64,000 bases of DNA from the NCBI GenBank assembly GCA_044344255.1, contig JBIJDH010000009.1:64001-128000 (forward strand), given 5' to 3'. Below, in pieces: positions 25,589 to 37,618 of the stretch. The notes under the pieces are model-generated. The model made no database searches. It saw only the letters and a program-made list of their open reading frames with translations, and was not told the DNA's origin. This DNA comes from Myxococcota bacterium (GTDB taxonomy: Bacteria > Myxococcota_A > UBA796 > UBA2385). Each line of letters begins with the position of its first letter. Within the stretch, counting starts at the first letter, position 1. The position numbers and the translations under genes were made by a program.

Positions 25589-27613
25589 GTGCCCGCCCTC
25601 CCCGCCCCGTCGTGTGATGCCGGTTCGACCCCGAAGACCACCGTGCCCGTGGCCTGTCCGCTGGACTGCCCGGATCGCTGCGCGATGGACGCCGTGGTGT
25701 CCGATGGCCGGCTCCTCCAGCTCAAGGGCAGCCGCCGGAGCCGCTGGACCGGCGGCTACATCTGCAAGAAGGTGCAGGACTGGCCAGCCCGCGTCCACGG
25801 CGCCGACCGCGTCCTGCACCCGGCGCGGCGTGTGGGGCCCAAGGGGCCGGGCGCGCGCTTTGAGCCCATCAGCTGGTCGGAGGCCCTCGACACGCTCGCC
25901 GGTCGGATGGGCGCGCTCGTCGAGCAGGACAGGGGAGGGGCCATCCAGCCGGTCTGGTATGGGGGCTCGAACGGCCTCATCACGGGCGGCGCGATGGACC
26001 AGCGCTTCTGGGCTCGTATCGGCGCCCGGGGGCTGGAGCGCACCCTCTGCGCCGCCAACACCGCCGCCGCGGTCGCCCGTGTCTGGCCTGGATTACCCTC
26101 CGCCAGCCAGGAGGACGTGGAGCTCGCCACGACGGCGGTGGTCTGGGGCTTCAACCCGCACGCCAGCGGGATCCACCTCGTCGAGCGCCTGAACGCCCTG
26201 AAGGCGCGCGGCGGCGCCGTCGTGGTCGTCGATCCCCGCGCGATCCCCTCGGTCCGTGGCGCGCTCCACCTGCCGCTGCTCCCCGGCACCGACTTCGCCC
26301 TGGCGATGTCCCTCTTGCACATTGCGCTGCGGGACGGCTTCGTAGACTGGGGCTGGCTCCGCGCACAGGTAGACGGCGCCGAGGCGGTGGCGCCCAGGGT
26401 CGAGGGCTGGACCCCCGCTCGGGCGGCGGCGATCTGCGGCGTCGAAGCCGGCCTCATCGAGGAGATGGCGCGAATCTACCGGGCCGGCGCCCCCTCCTTC
26501 ATCCGCTGTGGCTGGGGCCCGGAGCGGAACCAGCGCGGGGTGCTCGCCTACGAGGCGATGCTCATGCTCCCCGCTTTCTATGGGCATCTTGGCAGGCCGG
26601 GCGGGGGCTATTCTCTCTCGACCAGCGCGGGGTACGGCATGGACAAGGCGCTTCTGTCGGGGATCCCCAACCCGCGCCCCGCTCCGCCTCGCCCGACGAA
26701 CCTCTCCCGCCTCGCGGATGCGCTAGCGACGGAGGACGATCCGCGCCTGGAGCTCGTCTACGTCTATAACTGCAACCCGGTCGCGACCGTCCCCGACCAG
26801 GTGAGCCTCGTCCGGGAGCTCCGCCAGCCCGACCGTTTCGTCGTCGTACACGAGCAGGTCTGGACCGACACCACCGACGAGGCGGACCTCGTGCTGCCCG
26901 CTACCACCTTCGTGGAGCATGCCGATCTGTCGCGCTCGTATGGGGGCTACACGCTCCACTGGTCCGTGCCAGCGATACCGCCGGTGGGCGAGGCCCGGAG
27001 CAACCACGCCGTCTTTCAGGCCTTGGCCGAGCGCCTCGGCTTCGGCGACGAGCCCGCCTTTCGCGACTCCGAGGCCGACATCGCCGCCCGCGTCATTACG
27101 GCGGCCTTCGGCGCCGAGACCTGGGCCACGCTCCAATCCACCGGGACCGTCGACCTCCCGCGGAAGATCCAGCTCCAGGATGTCTTCCCCAGCCGGCGCC
27201 CCGACTGGTCGGGGCTGCTGGAGGAGGCCACCGCGCCAACCCGCGACCGTGAGCGAGCGTTACACCTGATCTCTCCCGCTTGTACGGCCGCGATCAGCTC
27301 TACGGGCTTCGAGCGGCAGCCGGCCGGCTCCGGTCGCCTCTCCCTGTCGCCCGGCGACGCCGCCCGCCTCGGCGTCCGCTCTGGTGACCCTGTCCGCGTC
27401 ACGAGCTCGCTCGGTGAGGTCGACATCATCGCCACGATCGATCTCGCCCACCGCGACGGCGTGGCCGCCATCCCCAAGGGCCTCTGGCGAAAGCACAGCC
27501 TGAACGGGTGGACGGCCAACGCGCTCGCCCCCGCCGAGGTGGACGCGCGTGGGGGTGGCGCCTGCTACAACGACGCCCGGGTCGACGTCCGTCGCCTGAG
27601 CCGCACCCCCTGA
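25589..27613 (+). CDS. Molybdopterin-dependent oxidoreductase (DMSO reductase superfamily)
   Basis: CPLDCPDRC...ICKK Fe-S motif, [25 protein letters not shown]-terminal molybdopterin-binding domain. Confidence 0.9.
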
Positions 27614-27623
27614 CGAGGTCTCC

Positions 27624-28268
27624 ATGCGCTGGCCCTTCTCCTCTCTCGACAAGACCACGCTCGTCTCCGCCGCGGACGCCCTGCCGGGGCGCGGGCAGCC
27701 GATGCCGGTCCGCGGACATCACCCCGTCCTCGGCCTGCCCCTCGACTCCACTCCGCCGGGGACGGAGATCCTTCTGCTCGCCATGGGCTGCTTCTGGGGG
27801 GCCGAGCGGAAGATGTGGCAGGTGCCGGGCGTGAAGCTGACCGCTGTGGGCTACGCCGGCGGCCACACGCCCAACCCGACCTATGCAGAGGTGTGCTCCG
27901 GTCGAACCGGCCACACCGAGGTGGTCCGGGTGGCCCTCGAGCCGACCGCCCTCGACCGGGTGCTGCGCGCGTTCTGGGAGGGACATGATCCCACACAGGG
28001 GATGCGACAGGGAAATGACGTCGGCACCCAGTACCGCAGCGCGATCTACGCGCCCAACCCGAGCTGGCTGGACCAGGCGACCCGCTCCCGAGACGCTTAT
28101 CAGGAGCGCCTCCGCTCGCAGGGCTTTGCGCCGATCAGCACCGAGCTGGCCGCCGATCGTGTCTTCTACTTCGCCGAGGATGAGCACCAGCAGTACCTGT
28201 ACAAGAACCCAGGTGGCTACTGCGGCCTCGGCGGCACGGGCGTCTCCTGCCCGGAGGGCCTCGGCTGA
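27624..28268 (+). CDS. msrA: Peptide methionine sulfoxide reductase A
   Basis: [45 protein letters not shown]. Confidence 0.97.
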
Positions 28269-28294
28269 GGCCCTCCGCTCCGGTGCTGCGCCTC

Positions 28295-30364
28295 TCAGCC
28301 CTTGGGCGCCTTCGGGGCGCGGGTAGAGGGGCGCCGCGGCCGACGGCGCTTGGGCGCGGCCTCCGGGTCCGCCTCGGCCCCTTCACCTTCACCTTCACCT
28401 GCTCCTTCACCTCCTCCTTCACGGGCGACCGCCGATGAGGGAGGCGCGGCATCGGCGGACTCGGGGGTCGCGGAGGCGGCGCCCTCGAGCGTCGGGGTCA
28501 CCGCTGCGGCGGGGGTCGGCTCGGGGGCGACGACCGAGGAGGGCGTCGCGAAGGCGGGCTCTCCCCGGTCCGCGGCCCGCTCCTCCGGAGCCTCACTCAG
28601 CCCGATAGCGGGCGCCTCCACCGCAGGCTCGAAGCGCGCGGGCTCTGCCTCCTCGCGCCGGGGCGTCGGACGCCAGGGTCGCGGGGCCTCCGGGCGCCAG
28701 GTCGGCGAAGCCTCCGGCCAAGATGCGTCCTCCTGGGCCTGGCGCTCCCGGGCGTCCGAGGCGCTGCGGCTCTCTTCATCGGTGGCGGAGTCGGTGAGCC
28801 AGGCGGAGGGGTCGACCACCGGGCCGTCCTGCCGTCGCAGCTCATTCTCCCGCTGCACCCAAGCGACGAGCTCCTCGGCCTCCTGTCGGTGCTGCTCGTC
28901 CCCCCAGAGGAGGAGTGAGATCGCCGTCGAGTCGTCCAGCACCTCACCGCGCTCGATGAGGAGGCGGATGTAGAAGCGGCGCAGGCTCTCCAGCAGATCC
29001 TCGGCCTCCTTCTTGATGACGAACTGGGCCGTGTGGGAGCGGATCGGGCGGCCGTCCGCGTGGGTGATCTCTCCGGCCGCCTTGAGCGCGTTGATGATCC
29101 CCCTCACCGTGCGGGCGGGCACGTAGGGGTCCGTCTTGCGGCAGCGACGGGCGATGTCGCCGTATGCGTACATGAGCGTGTTTCGCTTCTTTCGGGCTTG
29201 GCGCTCCTGGACGTGATCTACCAGCTCATGCACAACGGTGTGCCGGCTGAAGTGCGTGGCCGGGTGGAAGCCGGCGGCGTCGAGGACGCCACGGAGGCGA
29301 CCTGCAGGTCCGGCGAGGGGGACCTCGTCGATCTCTGCCTCCTCAACCACTGGCGCGACCTCCGCCGGCATCGACCCGACCTCCGGGAGGACAGGGTCCA
29401 GCCCGGCGAGCTCCACCTGATACCCGCCGGCCTTCTCGGAGCGCCGGAGGATCACGAGCGACTTGTCGCGGGCGGCCTCGAGGAAACGGGCGAAGCCCGA
29501 ATACCCGTACTCCGTCTCGTCGAAGGCCGGCTCTTTCCGCTGCATCGACTGCTTGACGAGCCCGGCGAGCACCGGCCCTGGATCGTCTCGCTGGATCCCC
29601 TGGAGCGTCTCGACGAGCAGCGCGAAGGCCGACTCACGATCCGGAACCGGGATCGGGGGCGCGGCGGGCAGCTCGGCGCGCGGAGCCGGCGGAGCGACTA
29701 CCGTGGCGGAGGGCTGGGGGGTGGGGCTGGGCGCGGCAGTGGAGCCCGAGGCCGCATAGGCGGGGGCCGGATAGGCCGGCGCCGAGGGGGCTGGGTAATT
29801 CGGATAGGCCGAGGGGTAGCTCTCGCGGCGCGACGGCTCGGGGCTGTAGGCCGGCTCGTACTCCTGCTCGGAGTAGCGGTCACGCTCGGGGGTGGGGTGG
29901 CGATCCCGGTAGAGCGACTCATAGAACATAAACTCGTCGCAGCACTCCACCAGCAGGCGGCTGCTGCTACCGCGGGTGCCGATGCCGATGACGCGCTTGT
30001 TGAGCTCCTTGAGCCGCATCACGAGGGGGGTGAAGTCGCTGTCCCCGGAGACGACCACGAAGGTGTCGATGTGGCTGCGGGTGTAGGCGATCTCCATCGC
30101 GTCCACGACCAGCGCGATGTCAGCGCGGTTCTTCTCGGCCCCGCGATAGCTGGTGAGCTCGATCATGTTCACGCCCTGCTCGAGCAGGCTCTGCTTGAAC
30201 TTCGCGAAGCGCCCCCAGTCCCCGTAGCTGCGCGACACCAGGATCCGTCCCTTGTCCTTCAGGCGACGGAGGATCGGGCGCAGGTCGAAGCGCCCGAGGC
30301 CCTCCTTCTCCGTGCCGGCGGCGAGGTTCTCGAAGTCGATGAGGACGCAGAGCGTGTGTTCCAA
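28295..30364 (-). CDS. NYN/LabA-DUF88 (PIN-like) nuclease with OST-HTH/LOTUS domain and disordered tail
   Basis: LIDFENL, KNRADIALVVDAM, VSGDSDFTPL, PAFDETEYGYSGFARFLE; TTG start inferred. Confidence 0.88.
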   Translation of the reverse strand: MEHTLCVLIDFENLAAGTEKEGLGRFDLRPILRRLKDKGRILVSRSYGDWGRFAKFKQSLLEQGVNMIELTSYRGAEKNRADIALVVDAMEIAYTRSHIDTFVVVSGDSDFTPLVMRLKELNKRVIGIGTRGSSSRLLVECCDEFMFYESLYRDRHPTPERDRYSEQEYEPAYSPEPSRRESYPSAYPNYPAPSAPAYPAPAYAASGSTAAPSPTPQPSATVVAPPAPRAELPAAPPIPVPDRESAFALLVETLQGIQRDDPGPVLAGLVKQSMQRKEPAFDETEYGYSGFARFLEAARDKSLVILRRSEKAGGYQVELAGLDPVLPEVGSMPAEVAPVVEEAEIDEVPLAGPAGRLRGVLDAAGFHPATHFSRHTVVHELVDHVQERQARKKRNTLMYAYGDIARRCRKTDPYVPARTVRGIINALKAAGEITHADGRPIRSHTAQFVIKKEAEDLLESLRRFYIRLLIERGEVLDDSTAISLLLWGDEQHRQEAEELVAWVQRENELRRQDGPVVDPSAWLTDSATDEESRSASDARERQAQEDASWPEASPTWRPEAPRPWRPTPRREEAEPARFEPAVEAPAIGLSEAPEERAADRGEPAFATPSSVVAPEPTPAAAVTPTLEGAASATPESADAAPPSSAVAREGGGEGAGEGEGEGAEADPEAAPKRRRPRRPSTRAPKAPKG

Positions 30365-30580
30365 GGGGGGTTCCGGGGAGGAAAGGGGGCAGGGGAGGGG
30401 GCCAGAGCGCGGGGCAGGGAGATCGAGGCGGGCGGGGCAGGAGCGGGGAGGAGACTGAGCTCGAGACCCCATTTGGGTAGGAAAGCACGCAGACGTAGCG
30501 CATGGGGCAGAGGTCCACAAGGTGGGGGTCCGCAAGGCGGGCCACGCCGAGATAGGCTGTTCGCCCGCTCAGGAGATCGC

Positions 30581-31459
30581 GTGTCGCAGCAGGACAACAT
30601 TTCGCCTCCGTCCTCGAGCCCCAAGGTGGAGACGGACCCGCGCGCGGGCTTCTCGGGCACGCTCAAGTACATCGCCGACGAAGGGCTGATGGCCGACGTC
30701 AACGCCGCCGTCGTCCTCGGTCGCCCGATCCTGGTCCGCGGCGAGCCGGGCACCGGCAAGACCCAGCTCGCCCACGCCGTCGCCGAGGCCCTGGGGATGC
30801 CCCTGCTCACCTGGCACGTCAAGTCGACGACCACCGCCAAAGAGGGGCTGTACCACTACGACGTGGTCCAGCGCCTCAATGACAGCCGCTTCGGCGACAA
30901 GGACGCCGTCTCCAATATTCGCCGATACATTCACCAGGGCGTGCTCGGGCGGGCCTTCCTGTCCACCGAGCGCGTGGTGATGCTGATCGACGAGATCGAC
31001 AAGGCGGACATCGAGTTCCCGAATGATCTGCTGCGCGAGCTCGATGAGATGGCCTTTCACATCCCCGAGATCGACGAGACCGTGCGGGCCATTCAGCGCC
31101 CGGTCACCATCATCACCTCGAACGCCGAGAAGGAGCTGCCGGACGCCTTCCTCCGCCGCTGCCTCTTCCACTACATCTCCTTCCCGGACAAGGAGCGCCT
31201 GAAACGAATCGTGGACGCCCACATGCCCACCCTCGACAAGGAGCTGGTCGACGCGGCGATTGAGCGCTTCTACGGCATCCGGCGCATCGAGGGGCTGCGG
31301 AAGAAGCCGAGCACGAGCGAGCTGCTCGACTGGCTCTTCGTCCTCGCGCGGTCCGGAGCCAACCCGACGGAAATCGCCAAGCGGCTGCCCTATCCGGGGA
31401 TCCTGGTGAAACAGGAGAAGGACGTCGAGCTCCTCCGCCAGAAGAAGCTGATTCACTGA
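30581..31459 (+). CDS. MoxR-family AAA+ ATPase
   Basis: GEPGTGKT, LIDEIDKADIEFPNDLL, ELPDAFLRRC, KKPSTSELLDW; AGGAG SD. Confidence 0.92.
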   Translation: MSQQDNISPPSSSPKVETDPRAGFSGTLKYIADEGLMADVNAAVVLGRPILVRGEPGTGKTQLAHAVAEALGMPLLTWHVKSTTTAKEGLYHYDVVQRLNDSRFGDKDAVSNIRRYIHQGVLGRAFLSTERVVMLIDEIDKADIEFPNDLLRELDEMAFHIPEIDETVRAIQRPVTIITSNAEKELPDAFLRRCLFHYISFPDKERLKRIVDAHMPTLDKELVDAAIERFYGIRRIEGLRKKPSTSELLDWLFVLARSGANPTEIAKRLPYPGILVKQEKDVELLRQKKLIH

Positions 31460-32610
31460 TGTTCCAGCTCCTCCTGTTCAATCTTCGGGCCCAGGGAAAC
31501 AAGGTGGGCCTCGGAGAGTGGCTCGCCTTCCTGGACGGCGTGGAGCGGGGGTTGGCCACCGATCTCGACAGCCTCTATCACTTCGGCCGCGCGGTGCTGG
31601 TGCACAGCGAGTCCGGCTATGACCCCTACGACGTGGCGTTTCAGGCCACCTTCGCGGGGGTCGAGCTGCCACCGCAAGTCAATCAGCAGCTCCAGGATTG
31701 GCTGCGAGACGCGCGAGAGGCGATGGGGGAGAGGGTCGCCACCGAGCTGAGCCCCGAGCAGCTGCGCGCCCTCTTCCTCGAGCGGCTGAAGGAACAGAAG
31801 GAGCGCCACGATGGTGGGAGCCGCTGGATCGGCACCGGCGGGACGTCGCCCTTCGGCAATTCTGGGGCCGCCGAGGGCGGCGTGCAGGCCGGTGGGGGCG
31901 GCGGTCGCTCCGCGGTGCTGGTGGCCGGCGACCGCCGCTGGGCCAACTACCGCACCGACAAGACGCTCGATCACCGTGACTTCCAGGTCGCGCTGCGGGC
32001 CCTGCGCAACCTCGCACGCGAGGGGGCGATGGAGCTTGACCTCGACCAGACCATCGACCGCACCTGCCAAAACGCGGGTGAGATCGAGCTCGCGTACGAC
32101 CGGGAGCGGCAGAACCGGGTGCACCTCGTGCTCGTGATGGACACGGGCGGCTCGATGAGCCCCCACACCCGCCTCGTCGAGCAGCTCTTCACCGCGGCCC
32201 AAGAGATGAAGGGTTTCAAGACCTTTCAGGCGCTCTATTTTCACAACGCGCCCTATGGGTTCCTCTTCGAAGACTACGACACCTACAAGCGCCGGCCGAT
32301 CGACGAGATCATGCGGGACTGGACCCCGCAGCACCGCCTGCTGTTCGTCGGCGACGCCTCGATGGCGCCCTATGAGCTGTTCACCCCCTTTGGCTTCGAC
32401 CCCTGGCGCACGAACGGCGGCCACCTCTCCGGCCTCGACTGGCTCCAGTTCATGAGGCGGCGCTGCCCGGCCAGCGCCTGGGTCAACCCGGACCCCCAGC
32501 GCTGGTGGGACCACCCCACCGTGCGCGCGATCGGCGGGGTCTTTCCGATGTTCCCCCTGACGATGGAGGGGCTCCGAGACGCCGTGCGCTCCCTCCGCGC
32601 ACCCACCTGA
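31459..32610 (+). CDS. VWA-domain (CoxE-like) partner of MoxR
   Basis: WIGTGGTSPFG, MDTGGSM MIDAS-like motif, YFHN, GDASMAPYEL; TGATG coupling. Confidence 0.88.
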   Translation: MFQLLLFNLRAQGNKVGLGEWLAFLDGVERGLATDLDSLYHFGRAVLVHSESGYDPYDVAFQATFAGVELPPQVNQQLQDWLRDAREAMGERVATELSPEQLRALFLERLKEQKERHDGGSRWIGTGGTSPFGNSGAAEGGVQAGGGGGRSAVLVAGDRRWANYRTDKTLDHRDFQVALRALRNLAREGAMELDLDQTIDRTCQNAGEIELAYDRERQNRVHLVLVMDTGGSMSPHTRLVEQLFTAAQEMKGFKTFQALYFHNAPYGFLFEDYDTYKRRPIDEIMRDWTPQHRLLFVGDASMAPYELFTPFGFDPWRTNGGHLSGLDWLQFMRRRCPASAWVNPDPQRWWDHPTVRAIGGVFPMFPLTMEGLRDAVRSLRAPT

Positions 32611-33205: not shown

Positions 33206-33835
33206 TCAGAAGGTGTGCTCCGGCAGGGCCATGTTGGCGGCCTTCATCGCCCGAGCCACCGCGGTGACGAGGTTGAAGTCTCCGCAGTCGTCGGCCACAC
33301 GAGCGGCCTCTCGGAGCGCGGCCTCGGTGCGATCGGGGAGGCGGGCCAGGGTGAGGAGGGCGAGGATCCGCTCCCGATGGTCACCAGCGGCGATGGCACC
33401 GTCGAGCGCGAGCTCGGCCATCCGCTCGCCCTCCTCGAGCTCGCCCGCGTCGAGGCGGGCGTTGGCCCAGGCCACCGCGGTGTCCGGGGCGGCGGGCGGG
33501 CGGGCGACGGCGGCCTGCGCCATCGCCGCGGCCTGGAGCTGGCGAAGCGCGGCGAGCCCATCCGCGTCACCGGCGCTGCGAGCCGCCCGGAGGCCCTGCG
33601 TGAGGGCGGCCATCGCACCGGCGGCGTCGGCCTGATGCAGGCGAGCCTGCGCGACCCAGGCGTAGATGCGGGCCTCCAGCTTTGGACGGCCCTTCGCCGC
33701 GTCCAGCGCCGCAGGCGCCGCGGCGAGGGCGGCCCCGCTGTCGCCGCGTTGGAGGGCCAGGTACATCCCATACGCGAGCTGATCGGCGCTCGTCCCGGCG
33801 TCCGGCGGGCTGTCCGAGCTCGACATCTCAGCCAT
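33206..33835 (-). CDS. Helical (TPR-like) hypothetical protein
   Basis: Ala/Leu-rich amphipathic helices; start overlaps the stop of the AhcY-like gene; GGAGG upstream. Confidence 0.6.
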   Translation of the reverse strand: MAEMSSSDSPPDAGTSADQLAYGMYLALQRGDSGAALAAAPAALDAAKGRPKLEARIYAWVAQARLHQADAAGAMAALTQGLRAARSAGDADGLAALRQLQAAAMAQAAVARPPAAPDTAVAWANARLDAGELEEGERMAELALDGAIAAGDHRERILALLTLARLPDRTEAALREAARVADDCGDFNLVTAVARAMKAANMALPEHTF

Positions 33836-34994
33836 GCCCCCGCCGGAGGGCCTGCAGGGCGAGCCCCGCCGCTTCTTGTTCGATCGCGAGCGGCACGATG
33901 TGCTCACCGGGGGCCGGAGTGGCGCGCGTGAGCCACTCGAGCGTCAACCCCAGGACCGCGAAGTGGAGCAGCACGGGCTCGGGCGAGCCCGAGTTCATCA
34001 CGATGTTGAGCGGGTGCCCATCGCTCAGCAAGACGAGGCGGGGGCCCTCCTCGAGCTTGTAGCCGACCACGTGATCCGAGATCTGGTCGACGCTGGTAGC
34101 CGCGGCCTTGATCGCCGGGACGTCGAGCTCATCACCGCCGTGCCCGGCGTTGATCAGGACCACGCCGTCCCGCGCCCCGCGGAGCGTGTTTGGGGTGACG
34201 ACCGAGCGTTGCCCCGTGCAGGTGACGATGATGCCGACCCGACCCACACACTCGGCGAGGCTGCTCGTGGGGTAGCCGTCGTAATGTGCGCAGAGGCTCT
34301 GAATGGCGTCGGTCTCGACGACCTCGACCTGCGCTCCCGCGGCGCGGGCATAGGCGCAGACCCCACGCCCCACCGGACCGTAGCCGATGACCCCGACCCG
34401 GCGGCCGCTCAGGTGCATGCCGGTGAGGGTCTGGACGGCGTGCCAGAGGCCCTCCCCGACGCCGTGCCGGTTCTCAATCGCCGGCTTTAGACGGCCATCA
34501 TTGATGTTGATCACGGGGAAGGGGGCGTCGACACCGGAGAGGGCGGTCATTCCCGACTTCGTGACCTCCACGGCGCCCAGCGTCCGGGCCGCCTGTTCCG
34601 GCCGATGCCGCAGGAGGGTGCCGATGAGGTCCGCGCCCACGTCCGCGACGAGCTCGGGCTCGTGATCGAGGACCTGGAGCAGGGAGTCCTCACGGCTGCC
34701 CGTGGTGTAGACGGGGAGCCCGTCGTCGCGGAGGAGATCGACCACCCCGTGATCGGTGGTGGCCTCGGAGGCCCCGCAGAGCACCCAGTCGCCGCCACCG
34801 AGCACGAGCTCCCGCACCAGGGCCGCCGTGAGCGTCGTGAGGTGCGCAGAGATCGCGATGGTGCGCCCTTCGAAGGGGCGAGTGGCAGCCCAGCGGTTCC
34901 CAAGCAGGGGAAGTATCGGAAAGAAGGCGTTTATCCTGGCGAGCTCCGCCGCCGCACGCGCAGAACGATTCTCGGGGCGGTGCTTCCTCTCCAT
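33828..34994 (-). CDS. Adenosylhomocysteinase-family protein (divergent AhcY paralog)
   Basis: RPFEG, AHLT, FPVININD, ENRHGVG, GYGPVGRG, NAGH; several substrate-contacting residues differ from canonical AhcY. Confidence 0.85.
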   Translation of the reverse strand: MERKHRPENRSARAAAELARINAFFPILPLLGNRWAATRPFEGRTIAISAHLTTLTAALVRELVLGGGDWVLCGASEATTDHGVVDLLRDDGLPVYTTGSREDSLLQVLDHEPELVADVGADLIGTLLRHRPEQAARTLGAVEVTKSGMTALSGVDAPFPVININDGRLKPAIENRHGVGEGLWHAVQTLTGMHLSGRRVGVIGYGPVGRGVCAYARAAGAQVEVVETDAIQSLCAHYDGYPTSSLAECVGRVGIIVTCTGQRSVVTPNTLRGARDGVVLINAGHGGDELDVPAIKAAATSVDQISDHVVGYKLEEGPRLVLLSDGHPLNIVMNSGSPEPVLLHFAVLGLTLEWLTRATPAPGEHIVPLAIEQEAAGLALQALRRGHG

Positions 34995-35837: not shown

Positions 35838-36725
35838 TCAGCCCTCGAAGCACTCACGGATGAGCTGCCGCACCACATGGGGCAGCTCCTGCCACACCGG
35901 CGCGCGGTACCGCCGGCCTCGTCCGGCCCGGGCCATCCGCTCGCAGGTGCGGACGCCCTGCGGCTCCTCGGCCCCCACCTGGACCACGTGGAGCAGCGGG
36001 TAACGAGCGGCCACCTTCACGGGGTCCCAGCCGACGTTGGCGATGCCGTCGGTCATGATGATGCCGGCTCGCTCCCGCCGCGAGGAGCGGTTGAGCTGTT
36101 CGAGGCCCATCAGCAGCCCGCCCTCGATGTTGGTGTAGCCCTGCGCGGGCACCCCGAGCACCCGCCGCACGAGCTCACGCACCGGCACCTCGGAGCCCAT
36201 CGGCACGAGCAGGTGAGCGACGGTGTCAAAGCTCACGGCCGCGAGGCGGTCGAGCTTGATGCGGAGGATGGCGGCGGCGAGGGCGGTGAGGGCGATCTTC
36301 TCGCCCGTCATGGACAGGGACATGTCGAGGATCACGACCACGTCAGCCTCTCGGGGCTCTCGCCGTCGAATGACGATGTCTTCGGGCCGCCAGGGCCTTG
36401 GCACCTCGACGGTGGAATCGACGTCGAGCTCCCCATCGGCGGGGTAGCCGTGCGCCACAGAGACCATGGGCCGCGCCGCGTGACGGAGCATCTCGCGGGC
36501 CCGATCGAGGACCGCGTCTACTGCCCGCTCCTCGACCTCTCTTCGGAGGGAGGAGGGCAGGACGCGCTTCAGCTTGTGGAGCTGGGTGGCGGCCTCCCAG
36601 CCGGTGGGGAGCTGCGCGAGCTGGAGATCGAGAGACGGAGTGGCCACATAGGGCTGAAAGGGGGACTCTCGATCGTGCTCAGGGTCCGAGCCCGCCTCTC
36701 CGAGGTCGAGCTGCGGCTTCGTCAC
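35838..36725 (-). CDS. VWA-domain protein (possibly made as the C-terminal half of a frameshift fusion)
   Basis: LDMSLSM MIDAS, GYTNI, MTDG; GTG start without SD; lies in the -1 frame of the upstream MoxR gene. Confidence 0.85.
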   Translation of the reverse strand: MTKPQLDLGEAGSDPEHDRESPFQPYVATPSLDLQLAQLPTGWEAATQLHKLKRVLPSSLRREVEERAVDAVLDRAREMLRHAARPMVSVAHGYPADGELDVDSTVEVPRPWRPEDIVIRRREPREADVVVILDMSLSMTGEKIALTALAAAILRIKLDRLAAVSFDTVAHLLVPMGSEVPVRELVRRVLGVPAQGYTNIEGGLLMGLEQLNRSSRRERAGIIMTDGIANVGWDPVKVAARYPLLHVVQVGAEEPQGVRTCERMARAGRGRRYRAPVWQELPHVVRQLIRECFEG

Positions 36726-37618
36726 CGCGGTGGAGTTTTTTTTTGCAGGTCCTTCAGCACGAGCTCGAAGGGGGTCTCGCGGGCGTCCTGGAGCTCGATG
36801 CGGGTGGGGAGGGCCATGGCCGCGGCGGCGTCGAGGTCTCCACCGAGCTCCGTCGCGAGATCGGCGATGGCCACGGCCGCGCGCACGCTGGCGCCCCGGC
36901 GGATGCGCGGATCGGAGCGGGTGGCGCGCACCAGGGCCACTGCGGCGACGATGAGGTCACGCTCCGGCTCCCGCTGGGCCTCCTGGAGCACGATCACCTG
37001 CTCCTCCTCTGCGCTCTGGTAGCCGAGGCGCACCAGCTCGAAGCGGTCGAGCAGGGCCTCCGAGAGGTGGCCGGTGGCCACGAATTCAGCGGGGTTCTGC
37101 GTAGCGACCACGCCGAAGCCTTGGCGGGCCCGCACGAGGCCAAAGTGGGGGACATGCACGATCCCCTCGTCGAGGGCCGGCAACAGGACGTTTTGGACCC
37201 CCTCGGGCATCCGGTTGAGCTCATTGATGAAGAGGATGGCCCCCTCCCGCATCGCCGTGACCAGCGGACCGGCGACGAAGAGCTCGGGCAGGTACCCCTT
37301 CTCGAGGACGCCCGGCGGATCGAAGTGCCCGACCAGCTTGGCCTCGCTGTACCGCCCGTCTCCGTCGACCCGCACCCAGCCGCGGCCGATCCCCTCGGTG
37401 ACCGCGCGAGCCAGGGCCGTCTTGCCGACGCCGACGGGGCCCTCGAGCAAGACGTTGCGCCCCGTACGCAGCCCGGCCACGAGGGCCCTGAGCTCTGCGC
37501 GGCGCCCGACGATGCCATGGGCCAGCGCGAGGCTGTCGATGTCCAGGGGCGGGTGACGGCTCGGCCCGCCGAGTGAGCCGAGGGGAGCGCCGAGAGGGGA
37601 GCGGCTGTCGTGGTCCAT
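36722..37618 (-). CDS. MoxR-type AAA+ ATPase
   Basis: GPVGVGKT, LFINELNR (Walker B Asp to Asn), ATQNP, LSEALLDRF, GASVRAA. Confidence 0.9.
   Translation of the reverse strand: MDHDSRSPLGAPLGSLGGPSRHPPLDIDSLALAHGIVGRRAELRALVAGLRTGRNVLLEGPVGVGKTALARAVTEGIGRGWVRVDGDGRYSEAKLVGHFDPPGVLEKGYLPELFVAGPLVTAMREGAILFINELNRMPEGVQNVLLPALDEGIVHVPHFGLVRARQGFGVVATQNPAEFVATGHLSEALLDRFELVRLGYQSAEEEQVIVLQEAQREPERDLIVAAVALVRATRSDPRIRRGASVRAAVAIADLATELGGDLDAAAAMALPTRIELQDARETPFELVLKDLQKKTPPR
36736..36744 (-). other. A9 slippery sequence (candidate -1 ribosomal frameshift or transcriptional slippage site)
   Basis: CAA AAA AAA ACT just before the MoxR stop; the -1 frame is open into the VWA ORF. Confidence 0.65.

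Follow-up and report, generated by a model that had tools for sequence, protein, structure and literature searches.

An open reading frame (ORF) encoding a MoxR-type AAA+ ATPase and the adjacent ORF encoding a VWA-domain protein, both on the minus strand of a 64,000-nucleotide window from a Myxococcota bacterium (GCA_044344255.1, contig JBIJDH010000009.1, positions 64,001 to 128,000), appear to be two parts of a single recoded gene. Comparison with relatives strongly supports a conserved −1 recoding site between the ATPase and the VWA half, and recoding at this copy, yielding both a free ATPase and a fusion, is very probable. In the proposed mechanism, the two ORFs would represent one ancestral AAA-linker-VWA gene with a programmed one-base slip at a run of nine A residues (A9). 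Standard reading would end four codons past the run and release a free ATPase of 298 amino acids (aa), and a fraction of reading would slip by a net −1 to give the fusion. An initial annotation of the window had noted an uninterrupted −1 frame leading from the run into the VWA ORF. This was confirmed, the joined product being 593 aa (294 + 299) versus 298 aa for the free ATPase. The genome comprises 8,177,060 bases with 71% GC and is 95% complete.

The A9 run, described in that annotation as the longest A/T homopolymer noticed in the window, turned out to be the sole A/T run there of at least six and one of only two runs of nine genome-wide. Lys is indeed nearly always encoded by AAG: AAA accounts for 7 of 118 Lys codons across 12 window ORFs, and two of those seven form the slip site. 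Genome-wide, AAA AAA encodes 14 of the 1594 Lys-Lys pairs in 3784 long ORFs rich in GC at the third codon position, and GC-rich relatives use AAA in 31 of 487 Lys codons off the site. The second MoxR gene of the window, offered as an internal control, was verified to end with CAG AAG AAG. The VWA ORF opens with a GTG that has no Shine-Dalgarno (SD) sequence at normal spacing, as annotated; what had been missed is that this GTG overlaps the ATPase stop (GTGA), the main local rival of a slip. Such an overlap alone would give a −1 offset, and the open −1 frame over 11 nucleotides (nt) is consequently no evidence by itself. Elsewhere in the genome, an A7 run in A_AAA_AAG context lies at a frame change (G000:C52:109452); we take this to resemble an IS3-type frameshift site.

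Conservation of the site and its junction

Searching 101 related genomes, that of the window included, for the VWA half gave 50 strong loci, and in 48 of them the VWA half lies at −1 offset with an A7–A10 run at the ATPase end, as anticipated for conserved −1 recoding that joins a MoxR-type ATPase to a VWA partner. The two exceptions are L010, where the contig ends and the ATPase half is missing, and L038, which a deletion together with another shift has disrupted. For wider comparison three separately fetched sets were pooled, in which near kin are included and the loci are not independent. In the first set (L001–L160) both halves were present in 103 distinct loci, of which 95 were split and carried the site, 7 were fused and 1 was broken; 5 incomplete loci were left out. 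The second, the best 80 of 346 metagenome stretches, held 10 duplicates, 14 fused loci, 41 split with the site, 1 split without it (L236) and 4 incomplete, together with another 10 that have no VWA match as the contig ends, the site being present in 9 of these and absent in L231. The third, of 55 loci, held 6 duplicates, 2 fused, 2 incomplete and 45 split with the site. Across the sets, 181 distinct split loci carry a slip site, 180 of which need −1 and one (L111) +1, 3 split loci are without such a site, and 23 relatives are in-frame AAA-VWA fusions; the two outcomes for which the annotation had proposed comparing homologous junctions, a poly-A with −1 offset and natural fusions, were thus both encountered.

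The same pattern is seen at the protein level, where KK occurs within the last 40 residues of all 120 best short homologues and lengths of 540–900 aa are found for 56 of the 150 best representatives. Relatives (best 80 of 437 kept) include metagenome-assembled genomes (MAGs) titled Myxococcota/Deltaproteobacteria, Bdellovibrionota, Thermoleophilia, other Actinomycetota, Spirochaetia, Acidobacteria, Thermoplasmatota and Bathyarchaeia. One 90% cluster contains both forms: P0001, a natural fusion with 65% identity in the VWA half, and P0019 are fused, and P0016 and P0017 are split at the same place, differing by one A-equivalent, which may be an allelic difference or an assembly slip. Split A9 copies also occur in L118, L126 and L221, within a largely archaeal clade of in-frame fusions, and two of these three are titled Thermoplasmatota, so archaea carry the slip site too. 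In several Thermoleophilia genomes an in-frame fused paralogue lies directly upstream of the split copy (L109:1742-3652; L266-L273).

The junction itself was inspected across the relatives. In 136 of them the zero-frame stop lies 0–51 nt (median 12) past the heptamer, and start and stop overlap in 5. The span from the site to the VWA half's first conserved Trp was compared in 129 aligned loci: it contains none of ATG, GTG and TTG in 24 of them and no ATG in 75, and in 87 the +1 frame is interrupted by a stop. A −1-frame linker motif of the P-x-L-[DN]-L type was found in 20 of 135 loci, ahead of any start in 18 of the 20 and starting before the zero-frame stop in 10. In the structural model of P0001 (mean predicted local distance difference test score 90.7), the final helix of the ATPase stops at the Lys run, residues 300–327 are disordered and the remainder is confident.

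Two signal classes across the family

The 181 split loci, which have an in-frame X_XXY_YYZ heptamer, fall into C_CCA_AAA (33), A7 (34), A8 (2), A9 (64), A10 (46) and A11 (2) sites. A 3′ structure was called strong when the 50-nt window starting 4 nt past the heptamer lay in the most stable tenth of the gene pair, a threshold set after the first set had been seen. Strong structure accompanies 44 of the 67 short sites (A7 and C_CCA_AAA; 20/31, 10/15 and 14/21 by set) versus 9 of the 112 A9–A11 runs (4/64, 1/25 and 4/23), this copy being among the 9; one of the two A8 loci has it and the other does not. Restricting sets 1 and 2 to a GC content of at least 0.66 left strong structure in 30 of 46 short-site versus 3 of 41 long-run loci. 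Codon phase follows the same division, with short sites in one phase in 45 of 46 loci and A9/A10 runs in all three. Among 47 loci whose runs do not exceed 8, the heptamer is followed directly by G in 45, and in Thermoleophilia a single codon usually separates it from the stop, as in one published chelatase cassette.

Covariation was found in the A7 hairpin of nine loci from one clade, 6 of 12 pairs changing on both sides; none of 500 shuffles reached this value and slid controls were all lower, although the shuffle comparison may be inflated by relatedness. For 11 Thermoleophilia sites the consensus fold is weak (4 pairs, −0.47 kcal/mol), the single-sequence hairpins differing in register. On an unrooted ATPase tree (157 rows, quick LG+G4), the short class requires 10 changes, at least 6 of them forced by strong branches. 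Both C_CC.A_AA.A and A_AA.A_AA.A are shift-prone in E. coli, and stimulators start 5–8 nt downstream of the shift site (PMC4066793). Overall, the data are consistent with, without reaching significance over independent tree pairs for, a family that uses two types of signal: A9–A11 runs seldom accompanied by strong 3′ structure, and A7 or C_CCA_AAA sites mostly accompanied by it, as is typical of a ribosomal −1 signal.

At this copy, the AAGGA upstream of the run and the 5-bp GCGGT/GCCGC hairpin 7 nt past it, pointed out in the initial annotation, are both present, and neither exceeds what chance would give. Four windows scored for 3′ structure had z of 0.09, −1.5, −0.03 and −0.67, and the small hairpins here are not common to most nearest relatives, leaving the hairpin unsupported as a conserved element; the 3′ window of this copy nevertheless ranks 0.09 among windows of its gene pair and so belongs to the top-decile group. 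AAGGA was rejected as a stimulator because upstream SD pairing in long-run loci is not enriched over synonymous shuffles (−3.25 vs −3.57 kcal/mol); short-site loci showed a slight enrichment (−5.05 vs −4.42). This scoring used the established anti-SD motif; the 16S 3′ end was not found in the genome.

Slip agent and alternative explanations

At this A9 copy the slip would be made mostly by RNA polymerase adding one A, and both agents may act; we put the chance that slippage here is polymerase-led at about even. Polymerase slippage is efficient at nine A/T (PMC5009743), and chelatase cassettes in E. coli reporters gave 10% (A7), 40% (A9) and 63% (A11) (PMC3711429, PMC5009743). Two features favour the polymerase: runs of A8 are nearly missing, and long runs are no longer constrained in hairpin or codon phase. 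In relatives with A7 or C_CCA_AAA and a 3′ hairpin, the ribosome is the likely agent. The same two products could also arise at this copy by ribosomal −1 tandem slippage of two Lys-tRNAs on A_AAA_AAA, a serious contender to which we assign somewhat less than an even chance. It gains from the uniform direction of the shift, from the 33 C_CCA_AAA loci whose four A cannot make them polymerase poly-A sites, from the frequent A_AAA_AAG endings and from the rank of this copy's 3′ window, and it is opposed by the scarcity of A8 (2 of 181, vs 112 loci with at least 9), which matches the nine-base polymerase threshold, by the far lower shiftiness of A_AAA_AAA than of A_AAA_AAG in E. coli (PMC5009743) and by the lack of any conserved SD or hairpin in long-run loci. 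Long runs would then simply be stronger ribosomal sites needing less stimulator, and this contender as a whole is a variant of the main explanation.

Two ordinary genes, the second re-initiated at the GTGA overlap with the A run incidental or acting as a damper of expression, would agree with the overlap at this copy, with the TGATG overlap that joins the control MoxR pair and with L236, in which an ATGA overlap occurs without a run. The rarity of such overlaps among relatives, the loci without a start before the conserved region, the −1-frame motif lying ahead of any start and the retention of the A run against strong AAG bias make this improbable, although minor re-initiation may add some free VWA protein at this copy. 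Phase variation, with replication slippage toggling split and fused alleles, draws on the mixed 90% cluster and on L111; we consider it still less probable, given the same −1 state in 111 of 112 long-run loci, an A9 run in all three bridging contigs (below) and the poor fit of C_CCA_AAA and A7 sites with hairpins. That T9 and a neighbouring stem form an intrinsic terminator for plus-strand (antisense) transcription is very unlikely: two terminator-like matches at 36710-36737 (+) were seen where 0.8 is expected, yet no plus-strand gene ends there, the stem in relatives lies 5–8 nt from the run at the spacing of frameshift stimulators, the run keeps a fixed codon phase, and the site of 33 loci contains no more than 4 A. 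A homopolymer error in one continuous ORF comes naturally to mind, A runs being error-prone, and its probability is negligible. Logan contigs of three of the four sequencing runs examined (X4, X11 and X17) span A9 with no gaps, so the error is refuted at the level of contigs, which are not raw reads, by three assemblies from different studies without an indel; 180 loci, moreover, share this offset. The X11 contig has 7 substitutions away from the run; X4 is possibly the source of the window DNA, and X3 was not counted at the run, having fewer than 31 letters on one flank.

Several observations weigh against programmed, polymerase-led slippage as set out above. Under Antonov's rule, a single shift direction among orthologues is read as ribosomal shifting (PMC3711429), which counts against the polymerase step, as does the frequency with which long runs terminate in A_AAA_AAG, a very shifty sequence (14 of 23 in set 3). 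Many long-run loci have a low GC content, which makes hairpins weaker, and over 6 independent tree pairs the hairpin went with the short site in 4.1 and against it in 0, which is not significant (median p 0.125; another comparison over 5 pairs was likewise consistent in direction and not significant). The GTGA overlap permits re-initiation at this copy. L111, with its A10 run and VWA half in the +1 frame, is either a natural variant or an assembly slip, and is the only one of the 112 long-run loci needing +1. Split forms without a slip site exist (L231 and L236), the latter suggesting true fission into two coupled genes, and the in-frame fusions show that some members manage without a free ATPase from this gene.

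If the slip operates as proposed, free ATPase and fusion would join in a hexamer bearing roughly one tethered VWA adaptor, and recoding would set the ratio of ATPase to fusion subunits. The assembled ring may act as a chaperone for remodelling or metal insertion, in the manner of NorQ6-NorD1, where each NorQ hexamer binds a single NorD whose finger enters the pore (PMC9976466, PMC13036017). More broadly, we tentatively suggest, at somewhat less than even confidence, that in an unnamed and widespread family of NorQ/CbbQ type one gene supplies a whole midasin-like machine, made of about five free ATPases and one fusion, and that this family has repeatedly swapped A9–A11 polymerase slippage without a hairpin for A7/C_CCA_AAA ribosomal shifting with a hairpin, and the reverse, at the same output.

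Locus, protein identity and known systems

Table 1. Features of the recoded gene and of the control pair, in window coordinates.
Feature	Position	Strand	Basis or remark
AAA+ ATPase ORF (short product), 298 aa	36722..37618	-	MoxR type; nearest folds CbbQ, NorQ
VWA ORF, 295 aa	35838..36725	-	ORF list
Walker A motif, ATPase residues 60-67	37418..37441	-	
A9 run, putative recoding site, codons CAA AAA AAA ACT (T9 on plus strand)	36736..36744	-	sequence
In-frame -1 heptamer A_AAA_AAA within the A9 run	36737..36743	-	sequence
Stop codon of the free ATPase (TGA, zero frame), 11 nt past the run	36722..36724	-	sequence
299-aa extension in the -1 frame: flexible linker, helical/finger segment and VWA domain	35838..36737	-	
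GTG overlapping the ATPase stop (GTGA, 36722-36725); possible re-initiation, unconserved	36723..36725	-	
Short -1-frame linker motif, type P-x-L-[DN]-L	36702..36719	-	
Two weak, small hairpins in tandem 3′ of the run; possible minor stimulator	36690..36728	-	
AAGGA upstream of the run; unsupported as stimulator	36750..36754	-	duplex -4.7 kcal/mol
VWA domain with MIDAS-type DxSxS...T...D residues	35883..36344	-	Pfam VWA_2, VWA, VWA_CoxE above cut-off
Control: second MoxR + CoxE-like VWA pair, TGATG overlap, without A run	30545..32610	+	

The ATPase was matched in Pfam by AAA_5 (76.9 bits, cut-off 22) and AAA_3 (47.2 bits, above cut-off), and its sequence matches in the PDB are midasin (best), NorQ and CbbQ. 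The ATPase part of the P0001 model is closest in fold to CbbQ (Z 23.9, root-mean-square deviation (rmsd) 2.7, 253 aligned) and NorQ (Z 23.6, rmsd 2.5, 250 aligned). Its residues 338-591 resemble the NorD VWA (Z 18.7, rmsd 2.6, 185 aligned), the alignment extending beyond the VWA core, and residues 356-592 resemble the midasin MIDAS domain (Z 16.8, rmsd 3.0, 196 aligned). The ATPase is NorQ/CbbQ-like, not ChlD. The motif names Walker A and MIDAS in Table 1 follow established usage; G60, G63, G65 and K66 of the ATPase are invariant in an alignment of 35 relatives. At the Walker B position (37220-37225, minus strand, residues 132-133) the residues are N-E, not D-E, both invariant in the 35 aligned relatives.

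Other assignments were tried and rejected. As a ChlD or cobaltochelatase subunit, the ATPase scores 29.9 of 499.55 bits for TIGR02031 and 31.9 of 779.45 for TIGR02442, and the VWA half matches neither; Pfam Mg_chelatase falls short of its cut-off (19.8 of 20.3), as do the equivalogs GvpN (88.1 of 266.8 bits) and MadB (62 of 475 bits) of their curated ones. ChlI, ChlD and CobS were not among the top fold or sequence matches listed, which excludes nothing. The large chelatase subunit CobN/ChlH (PF02514) was not found in the 95% complete genome, a control search matching in 5 of 14 genomes. Since some published genomes with frameshifted chlD (fs-chlD) lack the large subunit too, this absence alone does not decide; fs-chlD is also reported from genomes without any chelatase pathway (PMC9227772).

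The neighbourhood was examined for candidate clients. No family-wide client gene was found among the neighbours of 80 loci. The two genes for lysine 5,6-aminomutase lie directly upstream of the slip gene in 17 and 16 of the best 80 loci, of Bdellovibrionota type (L093, L094, L096, L100, L101, L104, L106-L108, L110, L113, L115, L120, L121, L124, L127 and L130), and these alpha/beta loci often also carry a Zn-dehydrogenase and an ELFV dehydrogenase. A role as B12-enzyme reactivase is possible in such loci, and lysine sensing through a slip site made of Lys codons is conceivable. As a client in the present organism the aminomutase was rejected: PF09043 was not found in the 101 genomes of the lineage, where the control was silent, and it is present in 104 of 401 genomes of the phylum, none of them in families carrying the slip gene. 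Other recurrent neighbours (a thiamine pyrophosphate enzyme, a GMC oxidoreductase, an AdoHcyase-like protein and Bax1-I) each appear in only about 9–11 of 80 loci. The adenosylhomocysteinase-like gene of the window (33828-34994, minus strand) scores below all curated cut-offs (best 232.6 of 275 bits), and such a gene is near the slip gene in 9 loci, the window included. A molybdopterin oxidoreductase, MsrA and the control MoxR/VWA pair lie within 7 kb at 25589-32610 on the plus strand, and no norCB or rubisco gene was detected among the 14 window proteins scanned.

The initial annotation had considered recoding in a MoxR-type complex undescribed. This holds for the present subfamily and fails in the broad sense: fs-chlD is published and ChlI and CobS are counted among MoxR ATPases (preprint 10.64898/2026.10.09.757910), so recoding in a MoxR-type AAA/VWA gene was already known. 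We found no publication on this NorQ/CbbQ-like family, though published frameshift surveys could still contain members or the run-length/hairpin pattern, and no report on MoxR together with slippage. Neither MoxR nor ATPase is mentioned in the main text of PMC3711429 and MoxR is not mentioned in PMC5009743 or PMC8211752; in a halovirus paper that combines MoxR, frameshifting and VWA, the frameshift concerns tail chaperones. The additions here are the breadth of the family, a non-poly-A variant with a ribosomal signal and an apparent exchange between two mechanisms. Should the proposal hold, a single recoded gene is listed as two genes in the annotation of hundreds of genomes, and chlD is joined by another AAA+/VWA family in which recoding controls how many VWA adaptors a ring receives, in keeping with the 6:1 ratio of NorQD. 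The close relatives also form a natural series (A9/A10 without a hairpin versus A7/C_CCA_AAA with one, plus fusions) in which the question of ribosome or polymerase at poly-A sites can be addressed. As a new principle the finding carries less weight, chlD and dnaX already showing the same device.

The closest published parallel is fs-chlD (PMC3711429, PMC9227772), which likewise combines an AAA half, an A-rich −1 site, a nearby stop and a VWA half, gives a short and a long product and has in-frame fused relatives. The layout of one tested cassette, A_AAA_AAA GCC TGA, is also that of the short-site loci in this family, and A9 and A11 occur in two AT-rich cassettes. The two systems differ in that the present ATPase scores far below ChlD and cobaltochelatase models and folds nearest to CbbQ and NorQ, and in taxa, this family being found in Myxococcota/Deltaproteobacteria-labelled MAGs, Bdellovibrionota, Thermoleophilia and Thermoplasmatota; the C_CCA_AAA variant was not met in the portion of the fs-chlD literature available to us. 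Like dnaX, which gives tau and gamma, one gene would here yield a short and a long AAA+ subunit, and dnaX orthologues also differ in mechanism, the ribosome shifting in some species and the polymerase slipping on 9 A in Thermus thermophilus. However, dnaX belongs to the clamp-loader family, and its long product in E. coli and Thermus comes from unshifted reading, whereas here the long product would be the shifted one. Midasin/Rea1 shares the ATPase sequence matches and a MIDAS domain and has six AAA units per VWA, but is a eukaryotic single chain of six fused AAA domains without recoding. NorQ-NorD and CbbQ-CbbO share the MoxR-type AAA+ fold and an adjacent helical/finger and VWA half with MIDAS residues; in those systems the two proteins come from separate genes with a known client nearby, whereas in the present family the adaptor would be tethered to its ATPase by recoding.

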